From: Patescibacteria group bacterium
GTDB taxonomy: Bacteria > Patescibacteriota > Minisyncoccia > UBA6257 > 2-01-FULL-56-20
Direction of reading: 5' to 3'
NCBI GenBank assembly: GCA_038063755.1
Contig: JBBTUL010000008.1
Coordinates: 17,910 to 81,909 of the forward strand
Length of the DNA stretch: 64,000 nt
Part shown: piece after piece, positions 2,482-27,260 of the stretch
How the letters are laid out: the number at the start of each line of letters is the position of its first letter
Numbering within the stretch: position 1 is the first letter of the stretch
Translations under genes and position numbers: made by a program
Notes under the pieces: model-generated
What the model saw: the letters and a program-made list of their open reading frames with translations, nothing else
What the model was told of the DNA's origin: nothing
The model's database searches: none

Positions 2482-2693
2482 TATGCAGGTTCCCTTTAAT
2501 GGACATTTTAAGTTAAGTCTTAGGATGTTTTCACAAGGATAGCCGCTGCCCTGGCTACGCCTTGGCAGTTTTTGTTAGGTTTTGTTTTGTGAGCGCGACC
2601 TCTAGGGTGCGCGAATGATTACAAAACCTTACATCCCGCCTGCGGCGGGATAACGATTTTCTTAACTCGTTACGCTCGTAAACAAAATCAGTT
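2482..2693 (+). promoter_or_regulatory. Structured ~210-nt 5' leader of the rplC transcription unit; a possible r-protein autoregulatory leader.
   Basis: Several stable hairpins before the rplC start, e.g. CTGCC..GGCAG and ATCCCGCC-tgc-GGCGGGAT. Function is inferred only. Confidence 0.25.
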
Positions 2694-3236
2694 ATGTTTA
2701 TTCTCGGTAAAAAATCGAAAATGACTCAGATCTGGAAGGATGGAAAAATCGTACCCGTTACGACTATTTCGGCTCCCGCAAATACTGTCTCGCAAGTTCG
2801 GACGAAAGAAAAAGACACTTACGAAGCAGTCCAGCTTTCGCTCGGAAAAACAAAAAGAGAATTTAAAAAGACAAAAAGCGATTTAAAGAAGGGCGACACG
2901 GTAACCGTCGAAGCGTTCAAAGAGGGCGATGTGGTTCGCGTAAGCGGTCTTACAAAAGGAAGAGGATTTCAAGGAGTTGTGAAGCGACATGGATTTCATG
3001 GTGGACCAAAAACGCACGGTCAAAAAAACAGGCTTCGTGCGCCAGGATCAATCGGGAGCACCGCTCCGCAGCGAGTCTGGCCAGGAAGGCGCATGGCAGG
3101 ACACATGGGCGTCGAACGTATTAGCGTAAAAAATCTTGTTATCGCCGCGATCGATGCTGAGAAAAATTTGCTTTTGATAAAAGGCGCTGTTCCGGGACAC
3201 ATCGGATCAATTCTTGAAATAGAAACCTTGAAATAA
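2694..3236 (+). CDS. rplC: 50S ribosomal protein L3
   Basis: MFILGKKSKMTQIW N-terminus and uL3 core motifs; operon context. Confidence 0.93.
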   Translation: MFILGKKSKMTQIWKDGKIVPVTTISAPANTVSQVRTKEKDTYEAVQLSLGKTKREFKKTKSDLKKGDTVTVEAFKEGDVVRVSGLTKGRGFQGVVKRHGFHGGPKTHGQKNRLRAPGSIGSTAPQRVWPGRRMAGHMGVERISVKNLVIAAIDAEKNLLLIKGAVPGHIGSILEIETLK

Positions 3237-22017: not shown

Positions 22018-22081
22018 GGATAGGCAGATTCTATACGGGATAAAGAGAAGGTCCCCGGTTCAAATCCGGGAGGTGGCTCCA
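22018..22081 (+). pseudogene. tRNA 3'-half-like fragment: variable loop AGGTC, T-arm CCCGG-TTCAAAT-CCGGG, 3' acceptor AGGTGGC, discriminator T and CCA, but no matching local 5' half.
   Basis: AGGTGGC is the perfect complement of the GCCACCT acceptor strand at 21829-21835, ~250 nt upstream. Confidence 0.35.
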
Positions 22082-22154
22082 GTTGGGCAGGCGACGCAAG
22101 CTCCGGGCTTGTGTCGGTCTCTCGTTTTTTGCTACTATTGTGTTCGTACTAAGA

Positions 22155-22226: not shown

Positions 22227-22326
22227 CACGTTAGACAATCTTGACCGCTATGGGCGGGATTAGATTTTCTTACGCCCCGCCGTCGGCGGGGCACTTTATC
22301 GTTTCTTCATCACGAGCCGGGAGAAT

Positions 22327-22599
22327 ATGGTCGTGTATTTTGTTTATATCCTGAAATCCTTAAAAACCGGTCATTATTATGTTGGATATACCAACAACAT
22401 GGCCCGGCGAATGGCCGAACACAACGGGGGAAAGACCCCATCGCTCCGGCGTCATATACCTCTTGAAATTGTAAAAATTGAGGTGTATTCTTTCTACGGT
22501 GAAGCGAGGGAGAGGGAGCGGCAAATAAAGAAATATAAGTCCGGAACCGCTTTCAGGAGAGTGTTGGGGTCTCTACCACCGCCCTCTGGCGGGGTGTAA
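22327..22599 (+). CDS. GIY-YIG (URI) domain nuclease-family protein, YhbQ-like
   Basis: VYILKS..G.YYVGYTNNMARRMAEHN is the GIY-YIG signature; 90 aa. Confidence 0.7.
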   Translation: MVVYFVYILKSLKTGHYYVGYTNNMARRMAEHNGGKTPSLRRHIPLEIVKIEVYSFYGEARERERQIKKYKSGTAFRRVLGSLPPPSGGV

Positions 22600-22636
22600 G
22601 ATTCTGTAATCCACTTCGCTTAAACAGAAATCTAAC

Positions 22637-22816
22637 ATGGCAAAAGCTAAATATGCGGACAATCTTATAGGGCTTAAATGCGGCGTTTGCAGCCGTCGGA
22701 ATTACTATACCCGCAAGAACAAAAAGAAGGTTGAACGAAAGATTCAGCTTAAGAAGTTTTGCGCTTGGTGTCGGAAGCAAACCGCGCATAAAGAAGGCAA
22801 GATCTCCGGAAAATAG
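22637..22816 (+). CDS. rpmG: 50S ribosomal protein L33. It is under the 60-aa cutoff, so absent from the supplied ORF track.
   Basis: MAKAKYADNLIGLKCGVCSRRNYYTRKNKKKVERKIQLKKFCAWCRKQTAHKEGKISGK: CxxC-N22-CxxC zinc ribbon and the bL33 pattern, in the classic position upstream of tRNA-Trp. Confidence 0.8.
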   Translation: MAKAKYADNLIGLKCGVCSRRNYYTRKNKKKVERKIQLKKFCAWCRKQTAHKEGKISGK

Positions 22817-23015: not shown

Positions 23016-23048
23016 GGGAGCTTGGTTTAGTGGTAAAACAGCGGTCTC
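23016..23048 (+). pseudogene. Exact 33-nt duplicate of the tRNA-Trp 5' half (acceptor, D-arm and start of the anticodon stem)
   Basis: GGGAGCTTGGTTTAGTGGTAAAACAGCGGTCTC is identical to 23169-23201; it then diverges into hairpins. Confidence 0.6.
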
Positions 23049-23084
23049 TCCCGATGCCCGACCATAGGTCGGGACCGGGATCCT

Positions 23085-23123
23085 CGATTTTCTAGAAATC
23101 ATCGCATATGATTTAGAAAATCG
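23085..23123. repeat. Strong near-perfect hairpin (16-18-bp stem) between the tRNA-Trp stub and the intact tRNA-Trp
   Basis: CGATTTTCTAGAAATCAT-cgcat-ATGATTTAGAAAATCG. Confidence 0.6.
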
Positions 23124-23168
23124 GGACAAAACCGCCAAAAGGTTTAGAGGTTCTACGAAGTTAGATAT

Positions 23169-23239
23169 GGGAGCTTGGTTTAGTGGTAAAACAGCGGTCT
23201 CCAAAACCGCGGTCGGAGGTCCGATTCCTCCAGCTCCCG
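23169..23239 (+). tRNA. tRNA-Trp(CCA)
   Basis: Acceptor GGGAGCT/AGCTCCC, D-arm GTTT-AGTGGTA-AAAC, anticodon arm GCGGT-CTCCAAA-ACCGC, T-arm GGAGG-TCCGATT-CCTCC. Confidence 0.85.
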
Positions 23240-23387
23240 CATTAGATTTTGTCACGCGTAGCGTGCTACAGAATCTTATGCCCCGCTATCGCCGGGGCAA
23301 ACCCACGAGAGAGCTGTGATTCATTTCATCTCTTTCCAAGAAATATATTTTGGTTATACTTCGTATATTCTCGAATCTCAGCAAAAA

Positions 23388-23472
23388 ACCTGTCAAAACT
23401 GTCCCGATTTTGTACGAGCAAAGCGAACAAACAAAATCGAGGATCCCGCCAGCGGGGCGGGACAAGGGAAGT
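23388..23472 (+). promoter_or_regulatory. Conserved ~85-nt leader upstream of Cys-rich paralog 1; a second copy lies at 25268-25354.
   Basis: Two hairpins: CGATTTTGT-N17-ACAAAATCG and CCCGCC-agcgg-GGCGGG. Both leader copies and the first ~20 codons downstream are nearly identical. Confidence 0.5.
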
Positions 23473-25254
23473 ATGAATAAAGAAATTAAAACCTGCCAAA
23501 GCTGCAAAAACCAATTCACGATCGAACCGGAGGATTTTGATTTCTACAAAAAAATAGCCGTACCGCCACCGACATTTTGTCCGGAATGCCGCCTGGCTCG
23601 CCGGATGAACTTTCGAAACGAGCGATCAATGTATCGCCGGACGTGCGATAAATGCCAGAAGAACATCATCGCCATCTATCCCGAAGGCAGTCCTTTGAAG
23701 ATATACTGCCAGCCGTGCTGGTGGTCCGATGCATGGGACCCGATGGCCTACGGATTCGATTACGATTTTTCCAAAAACTTTTTTGAGCAATTCAAAGACC
23801 TGGCCGAAAAGGTCCCGGCCATGAGCGATTTCAATACCAGCTCCTTGAACTCTGACTACTGCAACTACAGCGCCGATTGTAAGAACTGCTATCTCTTCAT
23901 TGGGGGTCGCCAAAGCGAGAACGTGTCTTTCGCAAACAGAGTGGTCACATCCAAGGATTCCCTGGATTTATATACCGGCGAGAAGTTGGAGCTGTGCTAT
24001 GAAGATGTGCAGTGCACCAATTCCTACCGTCTGTTCTTCAGCCGCTACTCGGAAGATTGCAGTGATTCCTGGTTTTTGTATGACTGCAAGAACTGCCAGA
24101 ACTGCTTCGGCTGTACCAATTTGAGGGGGCGGCAATATTACATCTTTAACCAGCCATATTCCAAGGAGGAATATACGAAAAAGCTTTCCCAGATGAACCT
24201 GGGTAGCTTCGCGGCGTTGGCAAAGGCAATGGAACGAGCCAAAAAGCAGACCTCCGGTGCCATCCATCGGTACGCCCATATCATTAACTCGCCAGGCAGC
24301 ACCGGCGACAACCTCTACAACGCCAAAAATTGTAAAGCGTGCTTCGACCTTATGGGTACGAATTCCGAGAACTCGAAGCACTGCCATTACTGCGTGGTCG
24401 GCAACAAGGACTCATATGACCAGTACGGGTCGCCGTACGCCGAGGATATGTACGAGACAATCGCCGTCGGTTTCGAATCCAACGAGAATTCGAAGTATCG
24501 TTTCAGTTATTTTATAAAAGGCAGCAGCGATATCTGGTATTCGTACAACTGCGTCTCCTCTCACAACCTGTTCGGCTGCGTCGGATTGCGCAACAAGGAA
24601 TACTGCATCTTTAACAGGCAATATTCCAAAGAGAAGTATGCCGCGCTCGTGCCGCGTATCGTGGCGCACATGGACCAGATGCCGTACACAGACAGGGGCG
24701 GGCGGCAATACAAATATGGAGAGTTCTTTCCGGCGGAACTATCTCCGTTCGCGTATAACGAAACCATCGCCCAGGAATATTTTCCGCTGACCAAAGTGGT
24801 AGCGACCGGCAGGGGACTCGCCTGGAAAGATGCAGAGGCGAGGAATTACCAGGTGACCAAGGCGGCCGACGACCTTCCGGACCACATTAAAGATGTTGAT
24901 GATTCCATCCTACAAGAGATCGTTGGTTGTGAGCATGCCGGCGCGTGCAATCACCAATGTACGACCGCTTTCCGTGTCACCCCGCGCGAACTCCAGTTCT
25001 ACAAGCAGATGGAGCTACCCCTGCCGCGCGCCTGTCCCAACTGCCGCCACTCCCTTCGACTAGAACAGAGGAACCCTCTTAAGCTTTGGAAAGGAAAATG
25101 CAAATGCGGTGGCGGAGTGTCAGGTGTGTACACCAATACCACCACTCATTTTCACGGAACAGATTCCTGCCCCAACACGTTCGAGACATCCTACGCCCCC
25201 GATCGACCCGAAATCGTCTACTGCGAACAATGCTATCAGGCGGAAGTTGCATGA
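23473..25254 (+). CDS. Large cysteine-rich protein (~590 aa, more than 35 Cys, many CxxC pairs and an internal repeat), family unknown; paralog 1
   Basis: Start chosen at MNKEIKTCQSCKN directly after the conserved leader. Internal repeat: ...NC.NCFGC.NLR...Y.I.N..YSKEEY... occurs twice. C-terminal CPNCRH...YCEQCYQAEVA. Confidence 0.7.
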   Translation: MNKEIKTCQSCKNQFTIEPEDFDFYKKIAVPPPTFCPECRLARRMNFRNERSMYRRTCDKCQKNIIAIYPEGSPLKIYCQPCWWSDAWDPMAYGFDYDFSKNFFEQFKDLAEKVPAMSDFNTSSLNSDYCNYSADCKNCYLFIGGRQSENVSFANRVVTSKDSLDLYTGEKLELCYEDVQCTNSYRLFFSRYSEDCSDSWFLYDCKNCQNCFGCTNLRGRQYYIFNQPYSKEEYTKKLSQMNLGSFAALAKAMERAKKQTSGAIHRYAHIINSPGSTGDNLYNAKNCKACFDLMGTNSENSKHCHYCVVGNKDSYDQYGSPYAEDMYETIAVGFESNENSKYRFSYFIKGSSDIWYSYNCVSSHNLFGCVGLRNKEYCIFNRQYSKEKYAALVPRIVAHMDQMPYTDRGGRQYKYGEFFPAELSPFAYNETIAQEYFPLTKVVATGRGLAWKDAEARNYQVTKAADDLPDHIKDVDDSILQEIVGCEHAGACNHQCTTAFRVTPRELQFYKQMELPLPRACPNCRHSLRLEQRNPLKLWKGKCKCGGGVSGVYTNTTTHFHGTDSCPNTFETSYAPDRPEIVYCEQCYQAEVA

Positions 25255-25354
25255 ATACCGAGATCCAAACCTGCCGAAACTGTCCCGATTTTGTACGAGC
25301 AAAGCGAATAAACAAAATCGCGGATCCCGCCAGCGGGGCGGGACAAGGGGGAGC

Positions 25355-25453
25355 ATGAATAAAGAAATTAAAAATTGCCAAAATTGTCATAAAGATTTCA
25401 CGATCGAACCGGAGCCCTTCGGCGGACTCAGGATTTCACTTCGTTTTACCTGA
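25355..25453 (+). pseudogene. Truncated N-terminal stub (32 codons) of a further Cys-rich paralog, fused to a second copy of the leader
   Basis: MNKEIKNCQNCHKDFTIEPEPF matches the paralog N-termini, then diverges and stops. Confidence 0.55.
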
Positions 25454-25458
25454 TATCT

Positions 25459-27195
25459 ATGCCAACATCTGAAAATAAAGTTTGTCAGAATTGCAAAGGA
25501 TCGTTCTTGATAGACGCTCAAGATTTTGATTTTTACAAAAAAATTGATGTGCCGCCGCCGACATTTTGCCCGGAGTGCCGCAGGCAGAGGCGGTTTGCAT
25601 GGAGAAACGAAAGGACCTTGCACAAGAGGGAATGCGATCTTTGCCATAAAGGTCTTATAGCCCTGTACCCGGCCGGAACCACTTTTCCGGTCTATTGCAG
25701 TACCTGTTGGTTTTCGGATAAGTGGGACCCGCTGTCTTACGGCACTGCCTTCGATGTGTCGAAATCCTTCTTCCAACAGTTCAAGGAACTCAGCGCTCGG
25801 GCTCCGCGCTTGGCGCTATGGGTCCAGCAATGCACCAATTCCGATTACACCAACCAGTCCTATGCAAATAAAAATGTCTATCTTTCTTTCGCGCTGAGGG
25901 ACTCCGAGGATACGGCCTATTGCGCCAGAATGACTCAGGGCAAACAATGTCTTGACTGTACGTACACTTATCACTCAGAACTTCTTTACGAATGCTTGTA
26001 TGCCGACAAATGTTATCGCGGGCGTTGCTTGGAAGAAACAGAATCCTGCGTCGAAAGTGGATTCCTTTCCAACTCTCGTAATTGTCAGCAGTGTTTTGGG
26101 GGCATCAACCTGCGCTCGGCGTCCCATGTGTTTTTTGGCGAACAACTTACTAAAGAGGAATACGCCAATCGAATCAAAGACCTGAACCTTGGCAGCCGGA
26201 AGACCCAAGAAGAACTTAGTCGCCGCTTCGCGGAACTGAAATCGAAAGGCATATTCCGTTACGCGAACCTTATCAATACCGTAAATACCCAGGGAGACCA
26301 TCTTTCGAACGCGAAGAACTGCTACTATGCGTTTGATGGTTTCGATCTAGAGAATGCCAGGCATTCCTCATGGACTTTCACCAGTAAGGACATTTCGGAC
26401 TGTTACGGCGCGGGAAGTTGTGAATTGACATATGAAGGTATCGGCGTGGAAGAGGTCAACAATGTGAAGTTCTGCAACGTGACCGATGGCTCCAATAACG
26501 TGCAATATGGCGACATGTGTTCGGCGTCCAGCAATCTGTTCGGTTGCGTGGGGCTTCGCAGTAAGGAATACTGCATTCTGAATAAGCAATATTCCAAAGA
26601 AGAATATCAAAAGTTGGTCCACGAGATCGTAAAACAGATGAACGATATGCCGTATCGTGACAAGAAGGGCAGAGAATACCGTTACGGGGAATTCTTTCCG
26701 GCAGAACTGTCTCCTTTTGCCTATAATGAGACAATCGCCCAAGAGAACTTTCCTCTCTCTAAGAACGAGATAGAGGCGCAGGGATATTTTTGGAGAGAGC
26801 CGGAGAAAAGGGAATACGCCGTGACTATTGCCGCCTCGGAAGTTCCGGACACGATTGCTGACGTAACCGGTTCTATCTTGGAAGAGACTATTGCCTGCGC
26901 GCACGGTGGGACTTGCAACGACCAATGTTCTTCCGCCTTCCGTATTATTCCCCAAGAACTCCAACTGTATCGCCAGATGAATATACCGTTGCCTGTTCTT
27001 TGTCCCAACTGCCGTCATTATCAGCGCTTGGCCAAGCGAAACCCTCTGAAGCTTTGGTCGCGCCAGTGTATGTGTAGCATCAAACACCCGCAGCATTCGG
27101 AAGGACGATGTCCAAATGAATTTATGACCTCTTACGCCCCCGACCGCCCCGAGATTGTGTATTGTGAAGCATGTTACCAGTCGGAAGTCGCATAA
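25459..27195 (+). CDS. Large cysteine-rich protein, paralog 2 (578 aa)
   Basis: Aligns with paralog 1 along its full length (N-terminal CQNCKGSF..DFDFYKKI.VPPPTFCPECR; twin FGCVGLR.KEYCI.N.QYSKEEY repeats; C-terminal CPNCRH...YCEACYQSEVA). Confidence 0.75.
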   Translation: MPTSENKVCQNCKGSFLIDAQDFDFYKKIDVPPPTFCPECRRQRRFAWRNERTLHKRECDLCHKGLIALYPAGTTFPVYCSTCWFSDKWDPLSYGTAFDVSKSFFQQFKELSARAPRLALWVQQCTNSDYTNQSYANKNVYLSFALRDSEDTAYCARMTQGKQCLDCTYTYHSELLYECLYADKCYRGRCLEETESCVESGFLSNSRNCQQCFGGINLRSASHVFFGEQLTKEEYANRIKDLNLGSRKTQEELSRRFAELKSKGIFRYANLINTVNTQGDHLSNAKNCYYAFDGFDLENARHSSWTFTSKDISDCYGAGSCELTYEGIGVEEVNNVKFCNVTDGSNNVQYGDMCSASSNLFGCVGLRSKEYCILNKQYSKEEYQKLVHEIVKQMNDMPYRDKKGREYRYGEFFPAELSPFAYNETIAQENFPLSKNEIEAQGYFWREPEKREYAVTIAASEVPDTIADVTGSILEETIACAHGGTCNDQCSSAFRIIPQELQLYRQMNIPLPVLCPNCRHYQRLAKRNPLKLWSRQCMCSIKHPQHSEGRCPNEFMTSYAPDRPEIVYCEACYQSEVA

Positions 27196-27260
27196 CATGC
27201 GGAATCCCGATGCGGGTCGGGGCGAACAATGCTATCAGGCGGAAGTCAGTTAAAAGCATT

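Follow-up and report, generated by a model that had tools for sequence, protein, structure and literature searches.

The window studied here, a stretch of 64,000 nucleotides from a Patescibacteria group bacterium (contig JBBTUL010000008.1, positions 17,910 to 81,909), carries a short double-hairpin element that lies directly upstream of a gene for a cysteine-rich (Cys-rich) protein and recurs nearby. With a probability of about 0.8, we read this element as a copy, devoid of an open reading frame (ORF) and similar to a MITE (miniature inverted-repeat transposable element), of a selfish double-hairpin GIY-YIG homing-type element that occurs across Patescibacteria, and not as a dedicated leader. 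Its copies form a family with a common structure, the family is united with a GIY-YIG gene, its insertions are site-specific, and a partial copy of the target co-occurs with it. A previous note on this DNA, made from the sequence alone (the original prediction), had described a structured leader duplicated in front of each of two Cys-rich paralogs.

The repeat itself is real. Positions 23386-23468 and 25267-25349 share 83 nt at 95% identity and form the two hairpins that had been described, one with a 9-bp stem (CGATTTTGT/ACAAAATCG) and a 17-nt loop, the other with the stem CCCGCC/GGCGGG. A 49-nt core pattern, allowing up to three mismatches, matched at these two copies (A and B) alone and gave no match in 100 shuffles. 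Folded as DNA, the 63-nt conserved core of copy A, which is the element proper (Table 1), reached -17.3 kcal/mol (z = -5.1 versus shuffles); RNA folds that included the flanks gave z = -2.8 for copy A and -1.8 for copy B. The divergence of the two Cys-rich proteins to 50% identity was confirmed as well. Other parts of the original prediction did not hold. The similarity does not end before the ATG, but extends over 148 nt at 88.5% identity and takes in the first 20 codons. What follows copy B is a 32-codon remnant at 25355-25453 and not paralog 2 (ATG at 25459). Finally, a third strong copy of 80 nt, copy C (23048-23127), had been overlooked. It was first located on the other strand by a gapped pattern of the hairpin feet (23085-23125), and it has the highest score in the window (52.8 bits) with our covariance model of the element, R1.

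Copies A and B differ at 2 of 63 positions in the core versus 22 of 102 in the flanks (Fisher p = 0.001), which corresponds to identities of 97% and 68-83%, respectively. Both core differences are unpaired, one in an interior loop and one in a bulge, and the gene fragments to the left of the two copies are about 68% identical to each other. Either the cores are thus of more recent origin than the flanks, through re-invasion or through gene conversion across the 1.9 kb between the copies, or their stems constrain them, or both. Selection on the element had been proposed from its near-identity; the excess conservation of the core was borne out, but neither younger cores nor stem constraint requires a regulatory role. 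A conserved peptide was ruled out because the reading frame across the element is open but not the same in copies A, B and L020, and closed in L049, L083 and L110 (L numbers denote the loci of our collection).

To find the family, we searched a species-representative genome collection with the exact pattern CCGATTTT-N15-40-AAAATCGNGGATCC. This yielded more than 119 loci, where about 7 are expected by chance (this and the other chance expectations for scans of the collection are our own estimates). The loci lie nearly all in Patescibacteria, in many classes, with a few in Bacteroidota and WOR-3. The consensus is gTCCCGATTTTgt-(hairpin)-acAAAATCGAGGATCCtCGAttt-(hairpin)-aaaTCGGGAc, in which the hairpin feet, GTCCCGA...TCGAGGATCC...TCGGGAC, are invariant. 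The consensus fold of 46 copies from 46 loci consists of two adjacent long hairpins with 35 pairs, of which 19 bear compensatory changes, in many cases with four types of pair. Owing to its dyad symmetry, the element scores on either strand, which is why the R1 scores of copies A, B and C are nearly equal on the opposite strand. Since the orientation of a dyad-symmetric element in an alignment is arbitrary, counts of G-U versus A-C were not used as a strand test, and R1 E-values should be taken as rough. Compensatory changes, for which the original prediction had suggested looking, were found, and because the element is conserved far outside this locus with abundant compensatory change, it is not merely the product of a recent duplication.

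The tips of the hairpins are triloops of the GCGAAGC or GCAAAGC type in 78 of 117 arms. Such triloops form unusually stable DNA mini-hairpins and are more typical of DNA hairpins, which would fit, as a weak indication, a structure-specific nuclease acting on single-stranded or extruded DNA.

Rfam at gathering thresholds returned no family for the element, only tRNAs and one LOOT RNA elsewhere. Permissive thresholds likewise brought up tRNAs only, and the best match below threshold, atpB (22 bits versus a gathering score of 37.4 bits), was rejected as a generic hairpin alignment. The foot pattern had no match in 2.9 million viral contigs. Clustering of the ORFs around the element at the 119 loci revealed no enriched transposase family, nor an enriched REP/RAYT Y1 gene family, but only housekeeping genes and one outstanding neighbour, a family of GIY-YIG proteins of about 85-90 aa.

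This association was quantified with a hidden Markov model (HMM) of the GIY-YIG family. It detected 21 genes in 858 kb of loci selected for the element versus 2 in 867 kb of control loci selected for Cys-rich genes, and 12 of the 21 genes lie at most 70 nt from a copy of the element. Among solved structures, their closest relatives are UPF0213 proteins (1zg2, E = 3e-8) and SLX1, a structure-specific endonuclease. To avoid selection bias, homologues of one such GIY-YIG protein were searched for and nine loci were taken on protein identity alone, which represent eight independent places. When R1 was run on them with filters off, matches were found only beside the GIY-YIG ORFs, and reading of the DNA revealed feet of the element that surround or adjoin the ORF in 7 of the 8 places. 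Two arrangements recur. The first hairpin encloses the ORF (TCCCGA-stem-ORF-stem-TCGAGGATCC-second arm) in L207, L209, L210 and L203/L205, as well as in L027. A complete short element precedes the ORF in L202, L206 and L204, as well as in L008. In five loci the ORF is followed after 0-26 nt by the start of a tRNA, and in all cases of an element with a GIY-YIG gene a displaced 5' fragment of the target lies to the left and the intact target to the right. Many small GIY-YIG homologues were seen on contigs shorter than 2 kb only, as would be expected if such loci break assemblies.

The full-length form reads [5' target fragment] / TCCCGA-stem - GIY-YIG ORF of about 85 aa - stem-TCGAGGATCC - second hairpin - TCGGGAC / linker of 7-15 nt / [intact target]. 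Its nuclease is a member of the UPF0213/SLX1-like clade. The element inserts by preference into tRNA loops and, in the Cys-rich family, at the second Cys codon of the first CxxC motif, and the short form is tolerated as an in-frame insert in some housekeeping genes.

At the Cys-rich genes, R1 was applied to 80 metagenome loci with homologues of the protein (867 kb) and gave four matches. The element lies 5' of 2 of about 70 primary homologues with upstream sequence, and of one further paralogue in these loci. With only 4 copies in 80 loci, about 97% of the family members lack the element, which is thus dispensable for the Cys-rich gene. Three of the four matches (L149, L129, L173) begin directly after the second Cys codon of the first CxxC motif (..TGYCARAAYTG|TCCCGA). 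Here the order is a 5' gene fragment with its own ATG, the element, a purine-rich linker of 7-10 nt, and the ATG of the complete gene; in L129 two rounds of this architecture are stacked. The same order was observed in L020 (Liptonbacteria) and L049, and the linker measures 7-10 nt at every Cys-rich insertion. In total, this CQNC site is occupied in the window (two copies), L020, L049, L129, L149, L173 and L203. As we estimate that about 0.04 such coincidences would arise by chance, three of four matches, together with L020 and L049, at one site indicate a strong landing hot spot. In L203/L205, the gene-bearing form occupies this very site: a fragment encoding MSSETKSCQNC is followed by the GIY-YIG element, a linker and a gene whose product is 40% identical to paralog 1 (E = 1e-119). 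Copies A and B of the window consequently correspond to a gene-bearing element of this site, but without its ORF.

The second group of targets comprises tRNA genes. An intact tRNA lies within 150 nt of 27 of 124 copies (22%) versus 4.3% for random positions in the same loci, and tRNA-like sequence directly adjoins 28 of the 124; the junction mostly falls at tRNA positions 10-25, in some cases near 35 or at 50-70. Typically, a tRNA fragment reaching from nucleotide 1 to a loop is followed by the element, some intervening sequence and an intact tRNA; one T-loop case shows the mirror image. Insertions at nucleotide 11 of tRNA-Glu were found in L008, L025, L117, L202 and L206, and insertions into the anticodon loop of tRNA-Ala in L027, L031, L038, L204, L207 and L209. 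In L031 and L038, deletion of TCCCGA..TCGGGA restores the D-loop of the tRNA exactly and leaves no duplicated bases, so that no short target duplication was made there; a simple target-site duplication was rejected for the D-loop and the in-frame insertions. Flanking sequence is duplicated across the element in 20 of 98 copies, versus 4 of 98 in a same-side control and none of 98 with shuffled flanks. A tRNA intron, of group I or of the bulge-helix-bulge type, was also rejected, because the interrupted copies are truncated and an intact copy is adjacent; no intron families were among the Rfam matches.

Some of these loci contain repeated units. L112 (4936-5296) has at least three tandem units of 138 nt, each composed of a 17-nt tRNA 5' fragment, the element and about 36 nt, which run up to the end of the contig. 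L042 (3101-3772) has two near-identical units of a 24-nt tRNA fragment plus element at separate places, one of them followed by a GIY-YIG gene. The tRNA-Ile genes next to them resemble each other at only about 80%, so that fragment and element were apparently copied together, as a single unit.

Eighteen of the 124 copies, none of them from the window, lie deep inside long ORFs. Copies are found in frame in genes for UvrA, RecG, RpoC, FolD, MurD, TruB and a pseudouridine synthase, with Pfam domains on both sides of or across the insert. In L052, L094, L095, L054, L105 and L109 (uvrA, recG, rpoC, folD, murD-like and truB) the insert adds 16-31 residues, and all three frames of the element are used.

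We propose that the nuclease would cut targets that are free of the element, and that repair would then copy the element together with a replacement gene end from the donor allele, as in homing. The resident 5' end would stay behind as a decaying fragment. Copies A and B would represent such landings in two neighbouring paralogues, and their near-identity would reflect a shared recent lineage of the element or gene conversion, in addition to stem constraint. The displaced fragment and the functional end have diverged in L203 although the ORF is intact (MSSETKSCQNC versus MEHVSENRICQNC), and the identity of the two tRNA-Ala halves in L207 and L209 is only about 70-75%. A replacement gene end that was imported with the element, as reported for the partial atp6/cob duplications of fungal mitochondria (PMC6279837), is therefore favoured over duplication in situ by a staggered cut. 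Within the window, the 90-aa GIY-YIG protein is a candidate trans-acting nuclease, and copies A, B and C, all without an ORF, lie 450-2,700 nt downstream of its gene (22327-22599).

Several observations weigh against this reading. The GIY-YIG gene of the window lacks canonical feet and is bordered by non-canonical double hairpins (22233-22292 and 22579-22637). The copy number per genome looks low, and copies from the same genome usually differ in their interiors, unlike those of a MITE burst. Conservation of the core above both flanks would also fit a function for the host. About 80% of the copies have no detectable target duplication. In some tRNA cases from Bacteroidota (L087, L023) the duplicates are identical and the element lies inside the duplicated segment and not at its edge, so that more than one route of insertion is possible; a single simple mechanism does not cover all cases. 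Both R1 and the set of loci stem from a strict sequence pattern and are biased toward canonical copies. Finally, mobility is deduced from sequence comparison, and no mobility event has been directly observed.

One alternative is that the element is an independent palindromic repeat of the RPE (Rickettsia palindromic element) or REP (repetitive extragenic palindromic) type, moved by some other factor, and that the GIY-YIG genes are separate homing genes which use the element or its hairpin loop as a safe landing site, just as REP sequences are targets of some insertion sequence (IS) elements. In its favour, the loop of an element arm holds the ORF in L207, L209, L210, L203 and L027, as if the ORF had been inserted into an existing hairpin, most copies have no ORF nearby, and the GIY-YIG genes of the window, L208 and L155 lack a canonical element. 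We nevertheless consider this explanation unlikely, since the same targets (CQNC, nucleotide 11 of tRNA-Glu, the anticodon loop of tRNA-Ala) carry forms with and without the ORF, in an identical fragment architecture, and no transposase family was enriched near the element.

That the element is a cis-regulatory RNA or a regulator-binding leader dedicated to the Cys-rich genes, as offered by the original prediction, is very improbable. Its appeal lies in the strong hairpins, the conserved core, the position 9-10 nt upstream of an ATG and presumably inside the transcript, and a version of close similarity, alike in its interior and its second arm, before a paralogue in a Liptonbacteria genome (L020). 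Such a leader should accompany the genes that it regulates, yet nearly all homologues do without it, and copy B stands before a remnant. It should also have a direction and a fixed context, yet the element is strand-symmetric and is found inside tRNA fragments and ORFs as well as around a nuclease gene; Rfam, too, knows no such RNA. Transcription presumably turns copies A and B into a structured 5' untranslated region, which would be a by-product. Of the three options put forward at the time, a recombination site came closest. Least probable of all is a plain recent segmental duplication in the paralog array. The coding sequence shared by A and B and the dynamic arrays, with end fragments that lack the element, would agree with it, but the core is far better conserved than the flanks, the third copy of the window sits in an unrelated context, and hundreds of copies exist in other genomes.

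The preferred reading, a homing-type element with ORF-less derivatives, has several relatives among known systems. The atp6 case of Allomyces is reportedly an example of a mitochondrial endonuclease gene with a gene-end duplication. In fungal mitochondria, free-standing GIY-YIG or LAGLIDADG homing endonuclease genes lie beside partial duplications of the ends of atp6 or cob (PMC6279837). As in that case, a small endonuclease gene is inserted near the end of a conserved gene and a displaced partial gene end lies beside the intact gene, fragment and functional end often being diverged. Unlike the fungal genes, the element is found in bacterial chromosomes and targets mostly 5' ends and tRNA loops; its nuclease is a bare UPF0213/SLX1-like domain of about 85 aa with no DNA-binding extension, and it has conserved double-hairpin termini and abundant ORF-less derivatives.

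RPEs are palindromic inserts that lie in frame within genes (PMC10969869). Like them, the element is short, hairpin-forming, dispersed within and between genomes, and without a transposase of its own; it also lies in unrelated housekeeping genes with the frame kept, as well as in RNA-gene and intergenic contexts. It differs in length (about 60-95 nt versus about 150 nt), sequence and hosts, and in its physically linked nuclease gene and its site-specific landings with duplication of the target end. To our knowledge, RPEs have no linked nuclease gene, and their hosts and consensus are unrelated to those of the element.

With REP, BIME and REPIN-RAYT sequences and with MITEs, the element shares hairpin formation, a mostly intergenic location and conserved inverted termini (GTCCCGA...TCGGGAC), and its short form resembles an internally deleted derivative of the gene-bearing form, as MITEs do. 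The head GTCCCGA is different from the GTAG/CGTC of REP and REPIN sequences, and no Y1 or DDE transposase was found nearby. Unlike a classical MITE, it has no fixed short target-site duplication (L031), and its gene-bearing form encodes a GIY-YIG nuclease and not a transposase. Low copy number and interiors that differ within one genome set it apart from both groups.

Two adjacent hairpins as a mobile unit are known from mitochondrial double-hairpin elements and GC clusters, which insert into genes as well as intergenic regions; in sponge mitochondria, hairpin elements have reportedly been studied. These elements are organellar and unrelated in sequence, and we know of no nuclease gene established as linked to them. 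SegB of phage T4 is a GIY-YIG homing endonuclease encoded in a tRNA gene cluster (PMC2330249). It resembles the present case as a free-standing GIY-YIG gene among tRNA genes, thought to spread by cutting the tRNA region that lacks it. SegB differs in its extra domains, its position between tRNA genes, and the lack of hairpin termini, interrupted tRNA copies and ORF-less derivatives, while the element was not found in the viral contigs scanned. Each ingredient has a precedent, be it palindromic in-frame elements, free-standing GIY-YIG homing genes or partial gene-end duplications. A prior description of the element was found neither in Rfam nor in the literature searched, the coverage of which is incomplete, so that an earlier description is possible; a 2024 review of prokaryotic MITEs mentions neither the Candidate Phyla Radiation (CPR) nor GIY-YIG.

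Table 1. Positions in the window of the element copies, their relatives and the neighbouring genes and fragments (a dot marks features without strand).
Feature	Position	Strand	Description
Degenerate element-like double hairpin	2633-2695	.	Immediately 5' of rplC; nhmmer E = 0.003; R1 14.9 bits
GIY-YIG nuclease gene, 90 aa	22327-22599	+	Pfam PF01541, 1.3e-13; family HMM match 1.4e-32; same BLAST cluster as element-linked genes
Partial tRNA-Trp, nt 1-33	23016-23048	+	100% identity to intact copy; cut in anticodon loop at start of copy C
Element copy C	23048-23127	.	Long perfect arms; R1 52.8 and 45.2 bits on the two strands; DNA fold z = -7.3
Intact tRNA-Trp (CCA)	23169-23240	+	41 nt 3' of copy C
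Weak relative of the element	23239-23298	.	Directly after tRNA-Trp; hairpin AGATTTTGT..ACAGAATCT plus GC hairpin; inverted copy of 22579-22637; R1 17.2 bits, E = 0.058; DNA fold z = -4.7
Decayed 5' fragment of Cys-rich gene	23371-23400	+	..E-S-Q-Q-K-T-C-Q-N-C, ATG lost; ends at second Cys codon of CxxC, where copy A starts
Element copy A	23401-23463	.	GTCCCGA-TTTTGT-(17-nt interior)-ACAAAA-TCGAGGATCC-CGCC-loop-GGCG-GGAC; two adjacent hairpins, no ORF; R1 37.8 bits on +, 35.1 bits on -
Linker, 9 nt	23464-23472	+	Purine-rich (AAGGGAAGT), Shine-Dalgarno-like; between copy A and ATG of paralog 1
Cys-rich paralog 1, 593 aa	23473-25254	+	Without Pfam or NCBIfam family
5' gene fragment B, MNTEIQTCRNC	25251-25281	+	ATG overlaps stop of paralog 1 as ATGA; ends at copy B; identical arrangement in L020
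Element copy B	25282-25344	.	R1 38.3 bits; 2 of 63 positions unlike copy A
Remnant ORF, 32 codons	25355-25453	+	First 20 codons paralog-1-like (MNKEIKNCQNCHKDFTIEPE), repeat identity 82%; then unrelated sequence and stop
Cys-rich paralog 2, 578 aa	25459-27195	+	50% identity to paralog 1; own complete N-terminus; no element directly 5'
3' fragment, 25 nt	27222-27246	+	100% identity to 3' end of paralog 1 (..EQCYQAEV)

Copy C shows the tRNA layout within the window, in the order tRNA-Trp fragment, copy C, 41-nt spacer and intact tRNA-Trp (Table 1). Three double-hairpin modules of a second type, with an AGATTYTGT..ACAGAAWTCT hairpin beside a GC hairpin, were seen at 22233-22292, 22579-22637 and 23244-23299. 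They border the GIY-YIG gene and the block of L33 and tRNA-Trp genes, and 22589-22619 and 23256-23286 are mutually inverted copies. Directly after tRNA-Thr(TGT), at 22018-22082, lies a 42-nt fragment of a tRNA 3' half with 74% identity to the 3' half of that tRNA; the roughly 23 nt before it, ending in ..ACGGGA, are possibly a decayed foot of the element. The gap between rpsJ and rplC is unusually long (about 830 nt, 1867-2693) and contains a 134-aa ORF (1994-2398) and weak element-like hairpins (1820-1924 and 2572-2695).

The Cys-rich proteins, of about 590 aa, contain many CxxC motifs and NCxNCFGCxNLR-like repeats. The family has at least 7,984 homologues, the named ones all from Patescibacteria, and corresponds to no Pfam or NCBIfam family. 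Its genes often form tandem arrays of 2-4 paralogues with end fragments, some of which lack the element. As the N-terminal zinc-ribbon of the protein is homologous to one near the C-terminus, unequal recombination may contribute to these arrays. In L123, two mini-genes (38-183 and 715-872), in which an N-terminal piece of a Cys-rich gene is fused to a C-terminal piece, lie 5' of two complete paralogues without any element. In the window, the remnant at 25355-25453 and the 3' piece at 27222-27246 flank paralog 2 as the 5' and 3' leftovers of a paralog-1-like gene. At this site, either the body of the gene has been exchanged or the array has recombined. A foot-like hairpin, TCCCGA..TCGGG (27206-27221), just 5' of the 3' piece was discarded, as its fold alone was not significant.

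For the annotation of this genome, the element reading removes a false lead, a new riboswitch-like leader, and it explains the local gene fragments, the half tRNA and the remnant ORFs at once. It also suggests that the streamlined CPR genomes harbour a family of selfish elements that is apparently undescribed, one that interrupts tRNA genes, adds peptides to RNA polymerase, UvrA and FolD, seems to break assemblies, and is tied to a tiny nuclease. This linked nuclease offers a concrete hypothesis for the movement of palindromic elements without a transposase, such as RPEs. More tentatively, and with rather less than even confidence, we suggest that the small UPF0213/SLX1-like GIY-YIG genes and their double-hairpin termini may constitute an undescribed, phylum-wide class of bacterial mobile elements. 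In these, a structure-specific nuclease would home into tRNA loops and defined codons, the element would bring or create a replacement gene end and so spare the essential target, and ORF-less derivatives would spread as RPE-like in-frame inserts. If true, this would give the UPF0213 family a function and provide a testable mechanism of mobilisation for palindromic elements that lack a transposase.

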